DNA of 47,766 bases, taken from positions 1 through 47,766 of IMG/VR virus record IMGVR_UViG_2541047895_000008, one strand, 5' to 3'. Each line of letters opens with the position of its first letter. The stretch's first letter is position 1. The notes under the pieces are model-generated. The model saw nothing but the letters and a program-made list of their open reading frames with translations, was not told the DNA's origin and made no database searches. The position numbers and the translations under genes were made by a program. Below, in pieces: positions 22,279 through 46,875 of this stretch. This DNA comes from a virus (lineage: Duplodnaviria > Heunggongvirae > Uroviricota > Caudoviricetes).

Positions 22279-24190
22279 TCACTCCTCCGGACAGCTTCGC
22301 TGCCAGTTCTTTCAGGGTTGGCCGGGTCGTCTCTTCTTCCCGGGATTTTGCCAGTACAGCCAGATCAAGCTGCCAGCGTTGCACGGACACACGTAATGCC
22401 GCGTAGGCATACACCAGGCAGTCCAGCGCTTCGTTACGCCGCTTTTTGTTATCCCACAGCAGACGCATCTTTCCTTTTTCCCACTTCTCCACAAGCTCTT
22501 CCGCCACCAGTTGCTGCGCCTCTGTCTGCGAAAAAATCTCCGGATCATCAGGAAAACGGATGGCATACGACGTGGCTTCATCCGCAGGAGTGGGATCGGC
22601 TTTCATACGGGCATAGAGAATTTCTTTTGCGGTGTCCGTCCCCACTTCACACAGATACACGCCCCGCTGATTGCGGGTTTTCGGCATGGTGATCACCGGC
22701 TTGCCATAGACAGATGCGCCTTTTACCGGCAGCACCCGGAAAACACCGTGTTTTTTTGACCTCTGATAGACAATTTCACCATCGATCCCCCCGGTGTCCC
22801 AGCAGACACGGGAAATGGTCATTTCGGTTCCGTCTGCATGGCAGTATTTTTTGTTGATCGCCGCATCCACACGTAACAGCGTCTCTTCCTCATCGGGACG
22901 GCCCATAATGATGATTTTATCCACCAGAAAGGCTTCCTCTCCCGGTGCCCATCCCCAGACATACATCTCAAAACGGTTTCGCTGCGAGTCAATGCCCGCC
23001 GTCAGATAAACCACCCGGGCAGGCACCGCCGCCGTGTAACGCACCACCTTATCCATCAGTACCTGGTGATCGAGTTTTTCGCCCACGGCCTCTTCCCAGG
23101 TCTCGCCCAGCGTGGTGTTCACAAAGGTTTTCAGGCCGTTGGGATCTTTCAGTGCATCCAGCCAGTCATAGACTATCTGTATCCAGGTGGTGAACGGACT
23201 GTACGCCGTCCAGATATGGAACGTGATGGAGCGCGGCGGCGGAATTTCATCCCCCCGGGCGCTGAAAAACATCAGGCCGTCACGGGTCCACATACCCGTG
23301 TTTTCACAGATCCAGCGCCCGTTACTCTGGTCAAGCTCAGACTGATGGATCACGCAGCCATGATGTTCACAGAGGTAGAAAACGCTTTCGGGGCTGTCCT
23401 TCTCCCATTTAAGGCCAAAAGGCGTGGATTCATCGCCAAATTTCAGATACTGCGCCTCCTCACAGTGCGGGCAGGGCACATAGAAACGCATGAAATGCGC
23501 CGACTCGTTGGCCGCTTTTTCGATCTGGCAGGTACCTTTGATTTTAGGCGTCGAGCCGCGAATGGATTTTGGCCATACAGAGCCCTCAATACGCTTATCC
23601 CCCAGCAGGGTTGGCGAGCCCTCTTTTTCGACATCCGGCTCGAACGAGGAAAGCTCGTCATAGCAGACCACGTCCACGGATTTTTCACGGTAGTTTTTGG
23701 CGGCTGCACCGCCCAGGCACCAGAAACCGACGCCCGATGAAAAGCGTTTCAGCGTGAGAGTATTGTCACGATGTTTACGACCCAGCCATGGGGAAAGGTC
23801 TTTCAGGCATGGCACGTTCCGAATCGTCGCCTCCACGTGAGACTTCATAAAATCTTCAGCGGCAGAATCCGTGGGCTGAAAAAGCAGACTGTTTCGGGAT
23901 TTATGCTCAATAAAATACCCGACCACCCCCAGCAACATCTTTGTATAGCCAACACGGGCAGATTTAATCAGGTTAACCGTGCGAACCTGGTCGTTACCCA
24001 TACAGTTCATAATGGCGATCTGGAATGGCAGCGTTTTCCATTCTCCCTCACCATATGAAGATTCTTTAGGCAGATAATAATTTTGATCAGCCCATTCAAC
24101 TGCCGTCATTGGTACAACCCTGACCAGAGGCTGCAGCGCAACCGAAACGGCAGCCATCATATTATTCAGTTGTTGCTCTGATATATTCAT
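22262..24190 (-). CDS. A: Terminase large subunit A
   Basis: MNISEQQLN...TAVEWADQNYYLPKES... close to lambda gpA; start set at the internal Met, not the ORF-track start at 24247. Confidence 0.9.
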   Translation of the reverse strand: MNISEQQLNNMMAAVSVALQPLVRVVPMTAVEWADQNYYLPKESSYGEGEWKTLPFQIAIMNCMGNDQVRTVNLIKSARVGYTKMLLGVVGYFIEHKSRNSLLFQPTDSAAEDFMKSHVEATIRNVPCLKDLSPWLGRKHRDNTLTLKRFSSGVGFWCLGGAAAKNYREKSVDVVCYDELSSFEPDVEKEGSPTLLGDKRIEGSVWPKSIRGSTPKIKGTCQIEKAANESAHFMRFYVPCPHCEEAQYLKFGDESTPFGLKWEKDSPESVFYLCEHHGCVIHQSELDQSNGRWICENTGMWTRDGLMFFSARGDEIPPPRSITFHIWTAYSPFTTWIQIVYDWLDALKDPNGLKTFVNTTLGETWEEAVGEKLDHQVLMDKVVRYTAAVPARVVYLTAGIDSQRNRFEMYVWGWAPGEEAFLVDKIIIMGRPDEEETLLRVDAAINKKYCHADGTEMTISRVCWDTGGIDGEIVYQRSKKHGVFRVLPVKGASVYGKPVITMPKTRNQRGVYLCEVGTDTAKEILYARMKADPTPADEATSYAIRFPDDPEIFSQTEAQQLVAEELVEKWEKGKMRLLWDNKKRRNEALDCLVYAYAALRVSVQRWQLDLAVLAKSREEETTRPTLKELAAKLSGGVNGYSR

Positions 24191-24671
24191 CGAGTAAATC
24201 CGGTAATTTATCCCCTGCCCGCGCACACTGATTTGCCCCCTTAGCAATAAGGGTTTTCAGATGGTCAAGATGGCGCGGTGTTAAATCAGGAAACTGTCGC
24301 TGCATGGATAAAGGGATGGAATCAAGCGTACTGGATAACGCCATTGCCAGCTTACTGAGGGCAAAAATACAGAACCCGGTGTCAATAAGTTTTCCTTTTG
24401 ACACCTCATTTTTTAACTGCTGTGTAACAGCCTGTTCTGCTGTCAGTTCCCATCTGGCAATAAGCAATTTCTCCTCATAGTCGTCTTCGCTATCGCCATC
24501 AGGCACATCGTTTTTACTTCTCCTCAGATACGATATGTAAAAATCGCGCCAGGCATCCAGATCCAGTTGCCCTCGCTTATTCGATATCGGGGCACCCGGC
24601 AATTTCTGCAATCTGCGAAGCTGGCGATCGGTCAGACTTAAATGCCTGGCAACTTCAGTCTGCGTAGCCAC
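24162..24671 (-). CDS. nu1: Terminase small subunit (Nu1-like C-terminus, divergent N-terminus)
   Basis: C-terminal ..GFCIFALSKLAMALSSTLDSIPLSMQRQFPDL..HLDHLK.. resembles lambda Nu1; located just downstream of cos. Confidence 0.7.
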   Translation of the reverse strand: MATQTEVARHLSLTDRQLRRLQKLPGAPISNKRGQLDLDAWRDFYISYLRRSKNDVPDGDSEDDYEEKLLIARWELTAEQAVTQQLKNEVSKGKLIDTGFCIFALSKLAMALSSTLDSIPLSMQRQFPDLTPRHLDHLKTLIAKGANQCARAGDKLPDLLDEYIRATTE

Positions 24672-24689
24672 TCCTCACCTCGCAAAAAC

Positions 24690-24880
24690 TCTCACCTCAC
24701 AATCACAACAAAACCGGTCATGTCCGGTTTACATGTCTGTTTTTTGTTCATGTCCGGTTCACAGAAGACCTGTTTTTATATTTTTCATATAGTTAACTTG
24801 AAGAGAAACCGGACATGGATCCCGGAAAATTTTCATAAATAGCGAAAACCCGCGAGGTCGCCGCCCCGTAACCTGTCGGA
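24690..24880 (-). other. cos site (cosN plus cosB-like terminase-binding repeats)
   Basis: - strand reads GGGGCGGCGACCTCGCGGGTTTTCGCTATTTATGAAAATTTTCCGG, matching the lambda left cohesive end (12-nt overhang at 24855..24866); repeated ccggacatg motifs lie between cosN and the small terminase gene. Confidence 0.85.
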
Positions 24881-25073
24881 TCGCCGGAAAGGACCCACGA
24901 AAATGATAATAATTATCATCTACATGAGGTTTATCACGACATGTGTGTACGCCATCAAACCACGAGAAATAATCAATTATTACGCAGGTATCGTATTAAT
25001 TGATCTGCATCAAATTAGCGTAAAAGCAACTTCAGATAATACAAATCAGCAACACTGAATACGGGGCAACATT

Positions 25074-25298
25074 ATGTCATCAAAGAACAGAACCCGCAGA
25101 ACAACAACCCGCAACATCCGATTTCCAAACCAGATAATTGAACAAATTAACATCGCTCTTGACCTGAAAGGTTCAGGTAATTTTTCAGCGTGGGTTATTG
25201 AAGCCTGCAGAAGAAGATTAATTAATGAAAAATATTCTCAATTTGTACCCAACAAAGACAAACACGACCAGAGCACCTGTTCAGACAGGTTTACTTAA
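25074..25298 (+). CDS. Small hypothetical protein, possibly YlcI/DUF3950-like
   Basis: MSSKNRTRRTTTRNIRFPNQIIEQINIALDLKGSG... ; + strand inside the late region; family assignment from memory only. Confidence 0.45.
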   Translation: MSSKNRTRRTTTRNIRFPNQIIEQINIALDLKGSGNFSAWVIEACRRRLINEKYSQFVPNKDKHDQSTCSDRFT

Positions 25299-25379
25299 AC
25301 GACTTATATATGACACAAAAAGCGACCACTAAAGTCGCTTTTTCTTATGGTAACAGGCAATAACTCTCTCAGATATTTT

Positions 25380-25694
25380 TTAGCATTTTTTTGACCGCGC
25401 GTTTCCGGACGTATTCTGTTCTCCTGTCCCTTTATATCGTCGGAATACCCGCCGCTCTTCAAATCCCATTCCCAACTCAGAATGTAGTCTGTTGACCGCT
25501 TGTTTTATTTCGGTCAGGTTCACCGGTGAAACCGGAGTCCGGCGCGCCTTACGCAAACACTCTGCTCGTTTCTGTGCCGCCACTTTTCTTTTCTGGTCAT
25601 CACTTAGCTGTACCATCACTTTTGCCCATCGTTCAGCTGCTCTCCGGTACAGTCCTTTTTTCTCCAGACATTCTGCCACGTGATCATGTAGCAT
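25380..25694 (-). CDS. PerC-family transcriptional activator homolog (Pch-like)
   Basis: MLHDHVAECLEKKGLYRRAAERWAKVMVQ... fits the PerC/Pch pattern; preceded by a long A-rich low-complexity tract. Confidence 0.6.
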   Translation of the reverse strand: MLHDHVAECLEKKGLYRRAAERWAKVMVQLSDDQKRKVAAQKRAECLRKARRTPVSPVNLTEIKQAVNRLHSELGMGFEERRVFRRYKGTGEQNTSGNARSKKC

Positions 25695-26159
25695 AAGTGA
25701 CCTCCGATTATCTACAGACTGCCATCCTGAATTTACCTTCCCTTAATGAAATAACAATAAAAAACAAACCACGCAAAAACAATAAAACAACACACAAAAA
25801 AAACTAAATAATAAACAAAAATAATCACCTTATTTTATTATTTTTTGAGGGAGCAATTACTGAACAAAAAACGCTGACTATATACTCAAAACCAAACAAC
25901 TATTCTGCCAATCAGGTATCATGGCAACACACGGAATTACCGTGTTTTTGCCTTCTCTGCCCATACAATACGGGCATATACTTCATTCTCTATTGTAATA
26001 TTTCTATCCATGTGCCCCACTCCATTTACCTGTAAATAATATTCAAAATATTTATCACAGAAATCGTTTTTGGCCATGAACTGAGCACACTATAAAGTCC
26101 GGAACTGACTCTTTGTTAAATTACCTTAACGTTACCAGTAACACCTTCATAACAAAACA

Positions 26160-26627
26160 TCACGGTATACACTGGGTACGGATATATTCCTGTGCTCCTT
26201 CCAGTTGCTTCTGCATTGCCATCAGCCGTTCTCTGAGGATGAAATAATCCCGTTCAGCGGTGTCTGCCAGTCGGGGGCCGGTTGCATTATCCACGCCGGA
26301 GGTGCCGGTGGCTTCACGCACGGTACCGGAGCAGGTGGCGTTGATCCGCAGGCGCTTACGACCAGCGGCAACATCAGCACGCAGAGTTTCATTTTCAGCT
26401 CTCGCATCGGCTAATTCCCTCGAGTATCTGGCATCAAGTGCAGCGACATCACGCTGGCGTATCTGCATATCAGTAATTGTCGCGTTCGCCAGCTCCAGCT
26501 CACTGGCTTTTTTATCGCGCTGCTCTTTGTAGATGATGGCGTGATCACGGTAATGATTCAGCCCCAGACTAAGCGCACCACAGGCCACCAGCAGGACAAT
26601 GATAACCACGCACAGAACACGGTTCAT
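26160..26627 (-). CDS. Rz: Spanin inner-membrane subunit Rz
   Basis: N-terminal TM segment (MNRVLCVVIIVLLVACGAL) then coiled-coil periplasmic domain; contains the embedded Rz1 frame. Confidence 0.8.
   Translation of the reverse strand: MNRVLCVVIIVLLVACGALSLGLNHYRDHAIIYKEQRDKKASELELANATITDMQIRQRDVAALDARYSRELADARAENETLRADVAAGRKRLRINATCSGTVREATGTSGVDNATGPRLADTAERDYFILRERLMAMQKQLEGAQEYIRTQCIP
26222..26392 (-). CDS. Rz1: Spanin outer-membrane lipoprotein Rz1 (embedded in Rz, +1 frame)
   Basis: MKLCVLMLPLVVSAC lipobox then Pro-rich ..PPAPVPCVKPPAPPAWIMQP.. Confidence 0.75.
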   Translation of the reverse strand: MKLCVLMLPLVVSACGSTPPAPVPCVKPPAPPAWIMQPAPDWQTPLNGIISSSENG

Positions 26628-26962
26628 ATCACCACCAACGGATTGCCCAGACCAGAACAGCAATGGCCACAATACGAATGGCAAAAGCTGCCGCTCTTGT
26701 TAAATCCAGACTGGCTGGCGTCTCCACTTCAATGCCTTTCATAATGGACAACCTCAGAAAGAATCTTTTATACTTCCTCACAGGGAAAGTACCTCCCTAC
26801 CCATAATTTCTCCCTTGCCTTACTCAAGGTCAGAAAACACAAAACCCCGCTTGCTGCCAACAAACGGGGTTTTTACTTTTATTCACTTAGGTTTTACCAG
26901 TTTTCAGGATTTCGTGTTATCCACCCGCGTTGGCCAACGTCATTTTTCAGGAAAATATTCTG

Positions 26963-30688: not shown

Positions 30689-31166
30689 CGAATTTCTCCC
30701 GTGTAGAGGAACAGAGTTAAAAAGCCGGAAGCGGAATCAAATCACAGGATGACCATCTGCCAGTGGCTGGTCGTAAAAAAAAGGCCGCGCCATGCGCAGC
30801 CGAAAATAAAGGGATAACGATGATAGTTTGAGAAAAACAGAAATAACACTTTTGTGGCAAAGCATGGTGCCGGGTGCCTCCCGGTGAATTCAGTATCAGC
30901 ACCTGAATCCGCGATTACCCCATATTCCTTCTTGCTGATTGCCCCACCGCACAGGGGGATTCACCATGCAGAAGTGTTTTTAATAAACAGCAAACAAAAA
31001 AATCAAGCATTATGCAGGCTGTTTCTTTTTATCACCGGCCACAGCAATACCATAATGCCGCAGACCAGCACCCCATCCGCCAGCACCGACATGATTCTGC
31101 TGGTGAAATCCACCATCACCACCAGAAACAGCAGGAGTGCAGCCACAGTCAGGCGCAGTTTTACCG

Positions 31167-31768: not shown

Positions 31769-31845
31769 TGGTGCGTTGTACTGGGTTCGAACCAGTGACC
31801 GATTGCTTAGAAGGCAATTGCTCTGTCCGGCTGAGCTAAAAACGC
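31769..31845 (-). tRNA. argO: tRNA-Arg (anticodon UCU)
   Basis: Cloverleaf GCGUUUUUAGCUCAG...CCUUCUAAGCA...GGUUCGAACC...ACGCACCA; third of the phage tRNA trio. Confidence 0.8.
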
Positions 31846-31858
31846 AGAATACCGATAA

Positions 31859-31935
31859 TGGACCGCCATCGGAGACTCGAACCCCGCGAAACCAGCTTCG
31901 AAGGCTGGCGTTCTATCCCGATGAGCTAATGGCGG
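31859..31935 (-). tRNA. argN: tRNA-Arg (anticodon UCG)
   Basis: Acceptor stem CCGCCAU/AUGGCGG, anticodon loop CUUCGAA, T-arm GGGGUUCGAGUCUCCG, 3' UCCA. Confidence 0.7.
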
Positions 31936-31942
31936 TATGTGA

Positions 31943-32018
31943 TGGTGGCCCTTGCTGGATTTGAACCAGCGGCCTGGCGATTATGAGTCGCTCGCTCTCA
32001 CCACTGAGCTAAAGGGCC
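31943..32018 (-). tRNA. ileZ: tRNA-Ile2/Met-like (anticodon CAU)
   Basis: GGCCCUUUAGCUCAGUGGU..GACUCAUAAUCGC..GGUUCAAAUCC..GGGCCACCA, close to the ileX-type tRNA. Confidence 0.8.
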
Positions 32019-34786: not shown

Positions 34787-34942
34787 TTACTCCTCAGGTT
34801 CGTAAGCAGTGAAGACAGCGACCTCCGTCTGGCCGGTTCGGATTCGTACCTCGCAGAGGTCTTTCCTCGTTACCAGTGCCGTCACAATGACGGTTAAACA
34901 GATGACGATCAGGGCGATTAACATCGCCTTTTGCTGCTTCAT
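34787..34942 (-). CDS. hokD: Hok/Gef-family type I toxin (HokD/RelF-like)
   Basis: MKQQKAMLIALIVICLTVIVTALVTRKDLCEVRIRTGQTEVAVFTAYEPEE (51 aa); AGGAG SD; structured leader upstream. Confidence 0.85.
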   Translation of the reverse strand: MKQQKAMLIALIVICLTVIVTALVTRKDLCEVRIRTGQTEVAVFTAYEPEE

Positions 34943-35641
34943 AGCCTGCTTCTCCTTGCCTTTCGGCACGTAAGAGGCTAACCTACATGTGTTCAGCATG
35001 GATTGAGCCTCAGATTAATGTTAAGCGTCTTGCAGGACGCGTAATGTTAACTGGGGCTTTTCTCTATCTGCCGTTGGTGTTCATGCCCGAGGCAGATAGC
35101 CTCAAGCACCCACAGCCATTCTACTTAACTACCGTTACCTCGCCAATATGAAATCAGTCAGAAAGGCGATCCATAAGAACAACAGCAAGGCAATAAATTG
35201 CCATTACAGCAGCAATAGCCAGCGCACATTTGAGAACAAGCACCACAACCTCCTGTATTGGACGTACACCAGTCCTGATAAATATGAGGCTGTCTCGTCA
35301 GTGATTCAATACAACTATTGGGTATAGTTTCTGTGATTTTGTTCTGTAGAAATGGAACACGACAACCAGTCACCACCAGCACTTCTTTAAATACGCCAAG
35401 TCCGACGCAAGCTAACCTTCTAGTCCGCTTTGAGCGAGAAGCGGACGTTCAATGTGATAAAGCTCAGGAACATTGTCGTTGATGATGATAAAGAGGATCA
35501 GACTAACTTAGCACTTCTCATCACGTTGATAAGGCATAGAAATTACAAACACTATTGTGAATATCGTTTTACTATAGTAAATTCAAGTAAGTTCTTTTCG
35601 TTCGTTATTACACAAAATAAAGTTCACTCTAAGGTTGAAAA

Positions 35642-45708: not shown

Positions 45709-46733
45709 TGGGAAGACGAAGGAAAAATCCTGAACACGAAAAATTACCTCCAAATGTATACCCAAATAAATATAGTTATGTATGGAAACCAACATCCAGA
45801 GAATCTGTAACACTAACCGCCATCAAGGATGGTTTAGCTGCTTTATGGAAAAAGTATGAGGAAACTGTAAATAATCGCGATCGTGCAATGACATTCGGTC
45901 GCTTGTGGGAAAAATTCCTCGCCAGCGCCTATTACAGTGACCTCAGTCCAAGAACACAAAAAGATTATCTGCAACATCAAAAAAAGTTGCTTGCCGTATT
46001 CGGTAAGGTGCCGGCAGATTCCATAAAACCAGAACACATCCGTCGATACATGGACAAGAGAGGGGAGCAGAGTAAAACGCAAGCCAACCATGAAAAAAGC
46101 AGTATGTCCCGCGTTTACAGTTGGGGGTATGAGCGAGGGTACGTGAAGGGTAACCCATGTGCAGGTGTAAGTAAATTCAAGGCCAAAAACCGCGAACGAT
46201 ATGTAACCGACAAAGAATACCAGGCAGTATTAAGCGTTGCACCTCTTCCTGTTTTTATCGCAATGGAAATTGCCTATCTGTGTGCAGCGAGGGTTTCCGA
46301 TGTGTTATCGCTGAAATGGGAGCAGATTGGAAACGACGGGATCTTTATCCAGCAAGGGAAAACAGGAAAAAAACAGATAAAAGCATGGAGTCCACGATTA
46401 CAGGCGGCGATCGAAAAAGCAAAACAGTTACCAACATCCGCCTATGTAATCAGCAATCAATACGGCAACCGATATATGTACAAAGGCTTTAACGAAATGT
46501 GGGTAGAAGCAAGAAATCGCGCAGGCAAAATTTCAGGTATTTTAACCGACTTCACCTTTCATGATCTGAAGGCGAAAGGAATTTCAGACTATGAAGGAAG
46601 CAGTCGGGATAAGCAACTTTTCTCTGGTCACAAAACCGAGGGGCAAGTGCTAATCTATGACAGGAAGGTTAAAGTTTCACCGACACTTGATGTCCCGTTA
46701 CCTGAAAATATTCCAAGAAAATATTCCAAGTAA
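45708..46733 (+). CDS. int: Tyrosine integrase (lambda Int family)
   Basis: 341 aa; C-terminal catalytic region ..FTFHDLKAKG..SGHKTEGQVLIYDR..; adjacent to the tRNA-Ser attachment target. Confidence 0.85.
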   Translation: MGRRRKNPEHEKLPPNVYPNKYSYVWKPTSRESVTLTAIKDGLAALWKKYEETVNNRDRAMTFGRLWEKFLASAYYSDLSPRTQKDYLQHQKKLLAVFGKVPADSIKPEHIRRYMDKRGEQSKTQANHEKSSMSRVYSWGYERGYVKGNPCAGVSKFKAKNRERYVTDKEYQAVLSVAPLPVFIAMEIAYLCAARVSDVLSLKWEQIGNDGIFIQQGKTGKKQIKAWSPRLQAAIEKAKQLPTSAYVISNQYGNRYMYKGFNEMWVEARNRAGKISGILTDFTFHDLKAKGISDYEGSSRDKQLFSGHKTEGQVLIYDRKVKVSPTLDVPLPENIPRKYSK

Positions 46734-46785
46734 TTCCAAGTGTGATTTTTGTCACTGACTTAATGATGTATAAGTGATTGAATTT

Positions 46786-46875
46786 TGGCGGAGAGAGGGG
46801 GATTTGAACCCCCGGTGGAGTTGCCCCCACTCCGGTTTTCGAGACCGGTCCGTTCAACCGCTCCGGCATCTCTCC
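46786..46875 (-). tRNA. serU: tRNA-Ser (anticodon CGA), serU-like; prophage attachment target
   Basis: GGAGAGAUGCCGGAGCGG...GGUCUCGAAAACC...long variable arm...GGUUCAAAUCCCCCUCUCUCCGCCA, 90 nt. Confidence 0.85.

Follow-up and report, generated by a model that had tools for sequence, protein, structure and literature searches.

The pchA locus

We analyzed a 47,766-nt stretch of viral DNA (Caudoviricetes; positions 1 to 47,766 of the IMG/VR record IMGVR_UViG_2541047895_000008), hereafter termed the window, and focused on pchA, a minus-strand gene coding for a virulence regulator of the PerC family, and on the low-complexity tract that lies upstream of its start codon. The original prediction, made from the letters of the window, had described the pair as a PerC-like activator gene next to the phage cohesive-end site (cos), preceded by an A-rich tract resembling curved AT-rich DNA. 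The features on which the argument turns are the following:

25380..25694, minus strand: pchA coding sequence (CDS), with an ATG start, for a 104-amino-acid (aa) PerC-family protein of Pch group 1
25701..25705, minus strand: Shine-Dalgarno (SD) sequence GGAGG, 7-11 nt before the ATG, as read from the sequence
25745..25840: the tract, A-rich on the plus strand and T-rich, C-poor on the pchA sense strand, at -51 to -146 from the ATG
25745..25850, minus strand: an extended T-rich, C-poor segment, at -51 to about -156 from the ATG

Identity, distribution and function of PchA

The assignment of the gene is virtually certain: by every testable criterion it is a member of the PerC/Pch family and, more precisely, the pchA allele itself. 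Its product matches the Pfam PerC profile (PF06069) over profile positions 1-89 of 90 with an E-value of 3.8e-44 and a score of 149.3 bits (curated cut-off 22.6 bits), also matches the phage family phrog_994 (E 1.4e-45), and is identical in 104 of 104 residues to PchA of Escherichia coli O157:H7 Sakai (ECs_1091). At the DNA level, 899 of 901 nucleotides are shared with the Sakai pchA locus over a span that comprises the end of Rz, the upstream spacer, the tract, the CDS and the terminator hairpin. Describing the open reading frame (ORF) as PerC-like was hence correct and understated, and comparison with the Pfam PerC profile and with PchA-C recovers the family match that this description implied. 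RefSeq annotates the protein as a 'PerC family transcriptional regulator' (WP_001303878.1) and UniRef names it a 'PchABC family transcriptional regulator'; the exact protein is found on at least 1000 contigs. Among complete E. coli genomes, 673 of 5426 carry the same 651-bp segment (at least 80% coverage) with a median of three copies per genome, 663 records are at least 99% identical to it, and the pch copies among the matches listed are all annotated as PerC family transcriptional regulators. A sequence search of the PDB with the protein retrieved no solved relative. What the gene is, what it does, where it lies and how it is annotated were all on record before.

Group 1 Pch proteins are reported to be needed for full expression of ler and the LEE (locus of enterocyte effacement), as well as for adherence (Iyoda & Watanabe 2004 and Porter et al. 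2005, cited in PMC6265319 and PMC4332760). Activation of the LEE1 promoter by PchA requires the presence of H-NS/StpA, and PchA reduces and remodels H-NS binding (Fukui et al. 2016, PMC4764244). For the identical protein it has been demonstrated that PchA binds at the LEE1 (ler) regulatory region, displacing or remodeling the H-NS/StpA silencing complex; Ler, once on, in turn switches on the LEE type III secretion system along with co-regulated effectors. PchA is one of the main switches for attaching-and-effacing virulence in enterohemorrhagic E. coli (EHEC) and related E. coli, and its gene marks the prophage as a virulence-regulatory element besides an effector carrier. The portrayal of the gene as a prophage-borne LEE activator also holds up, as it resides in a lambdoid prophage and LEE1 activation has been published for the identical protein.

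Several inputs to pchA transcription have been reported. LrhA is reported to activate both pchA and pchB directly, with effects that differ between the two genes (Honda et al. 2009, cited in PMC4456613 and PMC13012123). Other published inputs are butyrate/Lrp and NtrC/sigma-S, and SOS induction raises group 1 pch transcripts (PMC6265319).

Composition of the upstream tract

On the plus strand the tract (25745..25840) consists of 63.5% A, 17.7% T, 16.7% C and 2.1% G, with A reaching 68.7% in its core (25746..25828); on the pchA sense strand it is T/G-rich, the extended segment down to about -156 having 58% T and 5% C. When all 83-nt and 96-nt segments of the 47.8-kb window are ranked, the tract comes first in both single-base richness and A+T content (82%), the next-best segments attaining 53-55% A and 76-78% A+T. 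It is thus a real compositional outlier and no chance run. The A-rich low-complexity tract of about 100 bp was placed accurately by the original prediction, and no other stretch of the window is richer in A or in A+T; as for its being curved AT-rich DNA, the AT-richness stands while the curvature is moderately supported at best. With a rough wedge model, whose parameters are approximate, predicted curvature peaks at 22-30 degrees at positions 25780, 25800 and 25844, which places these peaks at the 96th to 99.5th percentile within the window; the 100-bp end-to-end ratio of the tract falls within the most curved 5%. Tandem Repeats Finder detected weak 21-bp and 25-bp periodicities (scores 56-63), and a direct-repeat search within the tract yielded no repeat families.

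Binding of H-NS or another nucleoid protein to the tract is plausible, as predicted from its base composition. Neither a mapped pchA transcription start nor H-NS binding at the tract was found reported in the accessible literature; a chromatin immunoprecipitation-on-chip dataset for H-NS in the Sakai strain exists, and the text of that paper makes no mention of the upstream regions of the pch genes (PMC4764244).

Promoter candidates and the conserved block

Scans of the region for sigma-70 promoters delivered three candidates, with position weight matrix (PWM) scores of 7.8-9.4, which are listed here with their elements:

25754..25759, minus strand: candidate -10 element TATTGT, within TTTT-TATTGT; other readings of the block are CATTAT and TATTAT
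25777..25782, minus strand: possible -35 element TTGTTT, separated by a 17-bp spacer from TATTGT
25899..25927, minus strand: alternative promoter-like site TTGCCA-17-AATAGT, found by the consensus scan and with a PWM score of 9.4
25757..25730, minus strand: third promoter candidate, with a predicted start at ~25723

The first of these, TTGTTT-17-TATTGT, scores 7.8 and would start transcription at ~25747 with a leader of ~53 nt. It coincides with the sole block of the tract that is invariant in all 81 pch loci (80 from viral contigs and the window), namely a T run followed by ATTRTT at 25754..25763. The same T-run and ATTRTT block is found at an equal distance from the ATG upstream of the homologues from E. 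albertii (91% at the aa level) and Escherichia sp. (77%), in upstream regions that otherwise differ and lack the strong T skew; this comparison covers the only two relatives outside E. coli that a genome-contig scan with one protein provided. The block conserved across Escherichia species supplies a -10 candidate that can be tested directly. We put forward the identification of TATTGT with the pchA -10 element as a tentative proposal from sequence, and would at present rather doubt it than rely on it.

The main rival to a promoter situated in the tract is that the tract itself is transcribed. A start at ~25892, as predicted for TTGCCA-17-AATAGT, would generate a leader of ~198 nt with the whole tract inside it, as a ~100-nt segment rich in U, poor in C and for the most part without structure. 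Such a segment would act post-transcriptionally, either by giving Hfq, ribosomal protein S1 or RNase E a place to bind, or through a weak AU hairpin that together with U8 forms an attenuator. The site in question is the only minus-strand match of the consensus scan, ranks second by PWM score, and has been kept in pchA, pchB and pchC alike. Furthermore, a T8 run comes after the A/U inverted repeats of the tract (I4 and I6); the strand asymmetry, with 58-62% T and 4-6% C on the sense strand in all alleles, is easier to account for in an RNA than in double-stranded DNA bound by protein; and pchA is already subject to Hfq-dependent small RNA (sRNA) control after transcription (see below). However, the site does not exceed shuffled controls and the stems, being formed by AU pairs only, are very weak. 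A scan of 24600..26300 against Rfam 15 at E <= 1 gave no match, and hence no known cis-regulatory RNA or sRNA family is present there. Moreover, the sequence of the tract is poorly conserved while the -10-like block inside it is kept across species, and this favors a start downstream of the tract. On this evidence we regard a transcribed leader as unlikely, though as the alternative that deserves most attention.

A divergent plus-strand RNA of about 100 nt (111 nt), antisense to the pchA upstream region, was also considered. Its elements would be the promoter-like TAAACA-18-TATTAT (25812..25841; PWM 6.5) and a hairpin at 25929..25945, whose U run belongs to the stem and forms no tail; the promoter score is low and the RNA folds (z -1.5) about as well as its shuffled versions, so that it is probably nothing.

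Variation of the tract among pch loci

Across the 81 loci the tract is by far the most variable part of the region: mean pairwise diversity is 0.135 in the tract, 0.002 in the CDS and 0.02-0.04 in the rest of the spacer and the small ORF, and the number of alleles per ~106 nt is 29, 1-5 and 12-16, respectively. An alignment of pchA with Sakai pchB shows 34 differences in 107 positions of the tract, one in 315 of the CDS, and one to four in each flanking segment; the tract alone accounts for 34 of the 46 differences over the ~790 bp compared. Against Sakai pchC it differs at 10 of 107 positions. The alleles form three main types (pchA, pchB and pchC), along with one recombinant-looking allele and one bearing a deletion of ~40 bp, and display homopolymer length variants, T6/T7/T8 at ~25797..25804 and T5/T6 next to TATTGT. 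The pchB and pchC tracts have T7 where that of pchA has T8, and the window carries the pchA-type tract. Throughout, the T fraction of the tract stays at 0.54-0.65, and its length is 93-96 nt in 27 of the 29 alleles.

Two loci are individually worthy of note. IMGVR_UViG_2728369393_000011 (L065) has a pchB-type allele from which ~40 bp are deleted in mid-tract, and in IMGVR_UViG_2634166457_000006 (L069) the tract is largely different and less T-skewed; the T run and ATTATT are kept in both.

Since most of the differences between pchA, pchB and pchC reside in the tract, it is the likeliest seat of their published differential regulation, e.g. by LrhA. That a single 100-bp tract concentrates the differences of otherwise near-identical loci offers a precise place to look for it. 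An alternative is that the tract is a functionless, slippage-prone low-complexity spacer at the junction of cargo gene and phage, drifting in sequence while mutational bias holds its composition. The diversity described above, being the highest of the locus and including homopolymer changes and the deletion in L065, agrees with this view, as do the weak 21/25-bp tandem structure, which suggests replication slippage, and the absence of a strong T skew in front of the homologues from E. albertii and Escherichia sp. Against it, T fraction and length are maintained despite a divergence of ~30% between pchA-type and pchB-type tracts, a conserved block persists inside the tract, and pchA and pchB, being regulated differently according to published work, must differ in sequence somewhere, which within the ~790 bp compared they do chiefly here. 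We thus view a neutral spacer as less likely, indeed improbable, and functional regulatory DNA for pchA as the probable role of the tract, although well short of certain.

A far more speculative extension, which we would not expect to be borne out, is that the T-rich tract tunes the LEE master activator through slippage, in the way of a contingency-locus rheostat, which is undescribed for pch. Were this the case, changes in T-run length and exchange of alleles between prophages would alter promoter spacing, the shape of the upstream DNA or both, and each pch copy or strain would set its own level or signal dependence of virulence activation.

Translational control and linkage to dicF

A second layer of control has been reported: the pchA mRNA hides its own ribosome-binding site by pairing it with an anti-SD sequence in the CDS, and the sRNA DicF pairs within the pchA CDS and frees the SD under low oxygen (Melson & Kendall 2019, cited in PMC7769764, PMC7873438 and PMC9438474), in a manner dependent on Hfq (PMC7769764). 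The GGAGG is unchanged in the E. coli, E. albertii and Escherichia sp. homologues. In a folding prediction for the RNA from -50 to +130, four of its five bases are paired with probabilities of 0.83-0.93, the G at -8 being the one that remains accessible (0.09); the predicted partner is mainly +24..+31, with an alternative at about +92..+102 in a longer construct. The predicted pairing is in line with the published SD/anti-SD self-inhibition.

The same prophage encodes DicF, and its candidate target site in pchA can be delineated as follows:

42396..42447, plus strand: DicF sRNA gene in the prophage early region (Rfam RF00039, 76.7 bits, E 2.7e-15; gathering score 48 bits)
25590..25597, minus strand: DicF-complementary site ACCAGAAA at +98..+105 of the pchA CDS, pairing with the DicF 5' end UUUCUGGU

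The 8-nt match of ACCAGAAA and UUUCUGGU is the longest perfect complement between DicF and the pchA mRNA. A duplex of DicF nt 1-26 with pchA +79..+106 has a predicted energy of -25.6 kcal/mol, which is equaled or beaten by 9 of 1000 shuffled sRNAs. The 8-nt complement and the presence of dicF in the prophage fit the published DicF mechanism without proving the site. The duplex of DicF with the whole pchA mRNA was long, loop-filled and uninformative, 22 of 500 shuffles being as good.

DicF is also encoded in the Sakai prophages Sp4, which carries pchA, and Sp11, which carries pchB (L002:5732-5783 and L003:41581-41632, respectively); in Sp14, the carrier of pchC, the Rfam search found no DicF match. 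Often, then, a single prophage carries both the regulator and the sRNA that activates its mRNA. The prophage of the window holds both pchA and the gene for the sRNA that is reported to unlock its translation.

Prophage setting

The window contains a complete-looking lambdoid prophage at tRNA-Ser (serU), with its late genes on the minus strand. We took its annotation from NZ_CP027550.1 (E. coli strain 2015C-4136CT1), to which the first 24 kb of the window are essentially identical. On the minus strand the order is lysozyme, Rz/Rz1, a 46-aa ORF, a 242-bp spacer (25695..25936) with the tract, pchA, a terminator hairpin, cos and terminase; pchA therefore sits between the lysis genes and the cos/terminase genes and is co-oriented with both. 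The neighboring features are:

26160..26684: Rz, lysis gene upstream of pchA
25937..26077, minus strand: 46-aa ORF of the late operon, next upstream of pchA (end-to-end match to phrog_2157, E 2.7e-37)
25317..25343, both strands: bidirectional terminator hairpin common to pchA (minus) and the convergent ylcI-like gene (plus)
25074..25298, plus strand: small gene of the YlcI/YnfO family between pchA and cos (DUF3950, E 1.3e-17; NCBIfam NF041551; RefSeq annotation)
24855..24866, minus strand: cosN, the exact lambda 12-mer GGGCGGCGACCT in lambda-like cos flanks
24162..24671, minus strand: Nu1-type small terminase gene, beyond cosN as seen from pchA
~36870..38110: insertion of an IS110-family transposase in the early region
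46789..46875: tRNA-Ser, adjoining the frameshifted integrase gene (~45700..46760)

The exact cosN lies 514 bp past the pchA stop codon with one small divergent gene in between, so that calling pchA adjacent to cos was a fair description. The hairpin at 25317..25343 has a GC stem with A5/U5 flanks, followed by a U run on each strand, and is stable in both orientations: its predicted free energy (dG) is -14.7 kcal/mol (z -4.46) on the minus strand and -11.9 kcal/mol (z -3.85) on the plus strand. As the integrase is frameshifted and an IS110-family element has inserted, the prophage is probably defective and fixed in place.

Mechanistic interpretation

Taking these observations together, we consider it highly probable that pchA is a moron, i.e. 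a cargo gene, with two routes of expression; the tract probably provides the regulatory DNA of the gene's own promoter. Lambdoid morons such as bor and lom offer a precedent: they are host-benefit genes with their own control region and terminator that sit in the late region beside lysis or tail genes and are active in the lysogen. Comparably, pchA would be cargo in the lambdoid late operon, between the lysis cassette (R, Rz/Rz1 and the 46-aa ORF) and cos. In the lysogen it would be transcribed from its own promoter, weak and dependent on activators, inside the 242-bp spacer; the most likely core of this promoter would be the conserved TATTGT. The tract would in that case contribute the spacer and the -35 region together with AT-rich DNA upstream, resembling either a UP element or a binding region for nucleoid proteins, and this upstream zone would be where the C-terminal domain of the RNA polymerase alpha subunit (alpha-CTD), LrhA-type activators and H-NS-type silencers act. 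Upon induction, pchA would be reached by read-through from the phage late promoter. The lambda bor gene is on the other strand, whereas pchA points the same way as the late operon, and read-through on induction can therefore reach it as well. In the mRNA, translation would be limited by the SD/anti-SD pairing and relieved by the prophage-encoded DicF.

A number of observations weigh against this interpretation. The best PWM score on the sense strand, 9.6, does not surpass the best obtained from block-shuffled sequence (10.2 +/- 1.5), and the sigma-70 consensus scan found fewer sites than expected, two versus 3.8. As the candidates are no better than shuffled sequence, we claim no promoter on the strength of the sequence; a gene reported to depend on activators would be expected to have a weak one, but this argues from absence. 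Two or three start sites fit the data equally well, whereby the tract could be either promoter DNA or transcribed leader. The spacings of its A-tracts are irregular (15.5, 8.5, 14 and 19.5 bp) and show no clean phasing, and its curvature values are moderate and depend on approximate model parameters. The high variability of the tract can also signal weak constraint. Likewise, the DicF duplex energy is modestly better than the controls, with 63 of 1000 random targets being equal or better.

Expression solely from the Q-antiterminated late transcript running from S-R-Rz into the head genes, with pchA lacking a promoter of its own and reporting spontaneous induction, is less likely still, and indeed very improbable: while the placement of pchA between lysis and terminase genes in the same orientation, the rise of group 1 pch transcripts upon SOS induction (PMC6265319) and the lack of an above-chance sigma-70 promoter are compatible with it, regulated transcription of pchA is reported in uninduced lysogens (LrhA, Lrp/butyrate, NtrC/sigma-S), the pchA segment of Sakai Sp4 runs opposite to the head genes, between insertion sequences (IS), yet is the most studied functional copy, and the prophage here is itself probably defective.

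Relationship to known pch and per systems

The closest counterpart is Sakai Sp4, which has the identical PchA and, as here, DicF in the same prophage. There too pchA comes after Rz, but the lysis-pchA segment lies inverted between IS629 and ISEc8, whereas the prophage in the window has another backbone and integration site (serU) and holds pchA in the normal late-operon orientation. Sakai pchB (ECs_2182, Sp11) and pchC (ECs_2737, Sp14) belong to the same family, have the same length and occupy the same slot between Rz and cos/terminase; their CDSs differ from that of pchA by one and three nucleotides, respectively, and their flanks are ~97-99% identical. Sp14 is integrated at serU, as is the prophage of the window. 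The presence of a pchA allele in a serU prophage, at the site of the pchC-carrying Sp14, indicates that pch alleles move between prophage backbones.

PerC of typical enteropathogenic E. coli (EPEC), encoded by perABC on the pEAF plasmid, is the founding member of PF06069 and likewise an activator of LEE1/ler, and PchABC (PerC1) can replace it (PMC4332760). It differs in being plasmid-borne, in standing third in an operon and lacking its own promoter region, and in being needed only under some conditions (PMC4764244). PchD and PchE, which represent groups 2 and 3 in O157, are also PerC-family proteins with a prophage or prophage-like location (PMC6265319); in contrast to group 1, they are reported to be dispensable for expression of the LEE, and curli and flagella are under repression by PchE (PMC6265319, PMC7369912). 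To this picture we add the concentration of polymorphism in the tract, the -10-like block and the pchA-dicF linkage, small additions which we did not find in the accessible literature and which may be covered already.

Further features of the prophage

The 46-aa ORF upstream of pchA, a member of a phage family (phrog_2157), is unannotated in all three RefSeq records examined; its version at the pchC locus is open, with mostly non-synonymous changes. A stable, near-palindromic hairpin (25923..25952; dG -16.7 kcal/mol, z -4.4) covers the stop codon of this ORF and lies just before the promoter-like hexamer TTGCCA. It is no canonical terminator because it lacks a U tail on the sense strand, and it could be an RNA processing or stabilizing element.

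The tail-fiber end of the prophage (~1..2400; annotation L005:230-3386) encodes nleF, a frameshifted nleH, a fragment of nleC, and nleB2. The presence of these LEE-dependent type III effector genes implies that the host is, or once was, an E. coli of the attaching-effacing type. The tail genes also have sodC in their midst. The sRNA STnc100 (30826..30998, minus strand) maps upstream of the late region, and the sok antitoxin of a hok/sok (hokD) module is found at 34937..35111 on the same strand. Three tRNA genes (Ile, Arg, Arg) are clustered downstream of Q at 31772..32018, also on the minus strand.

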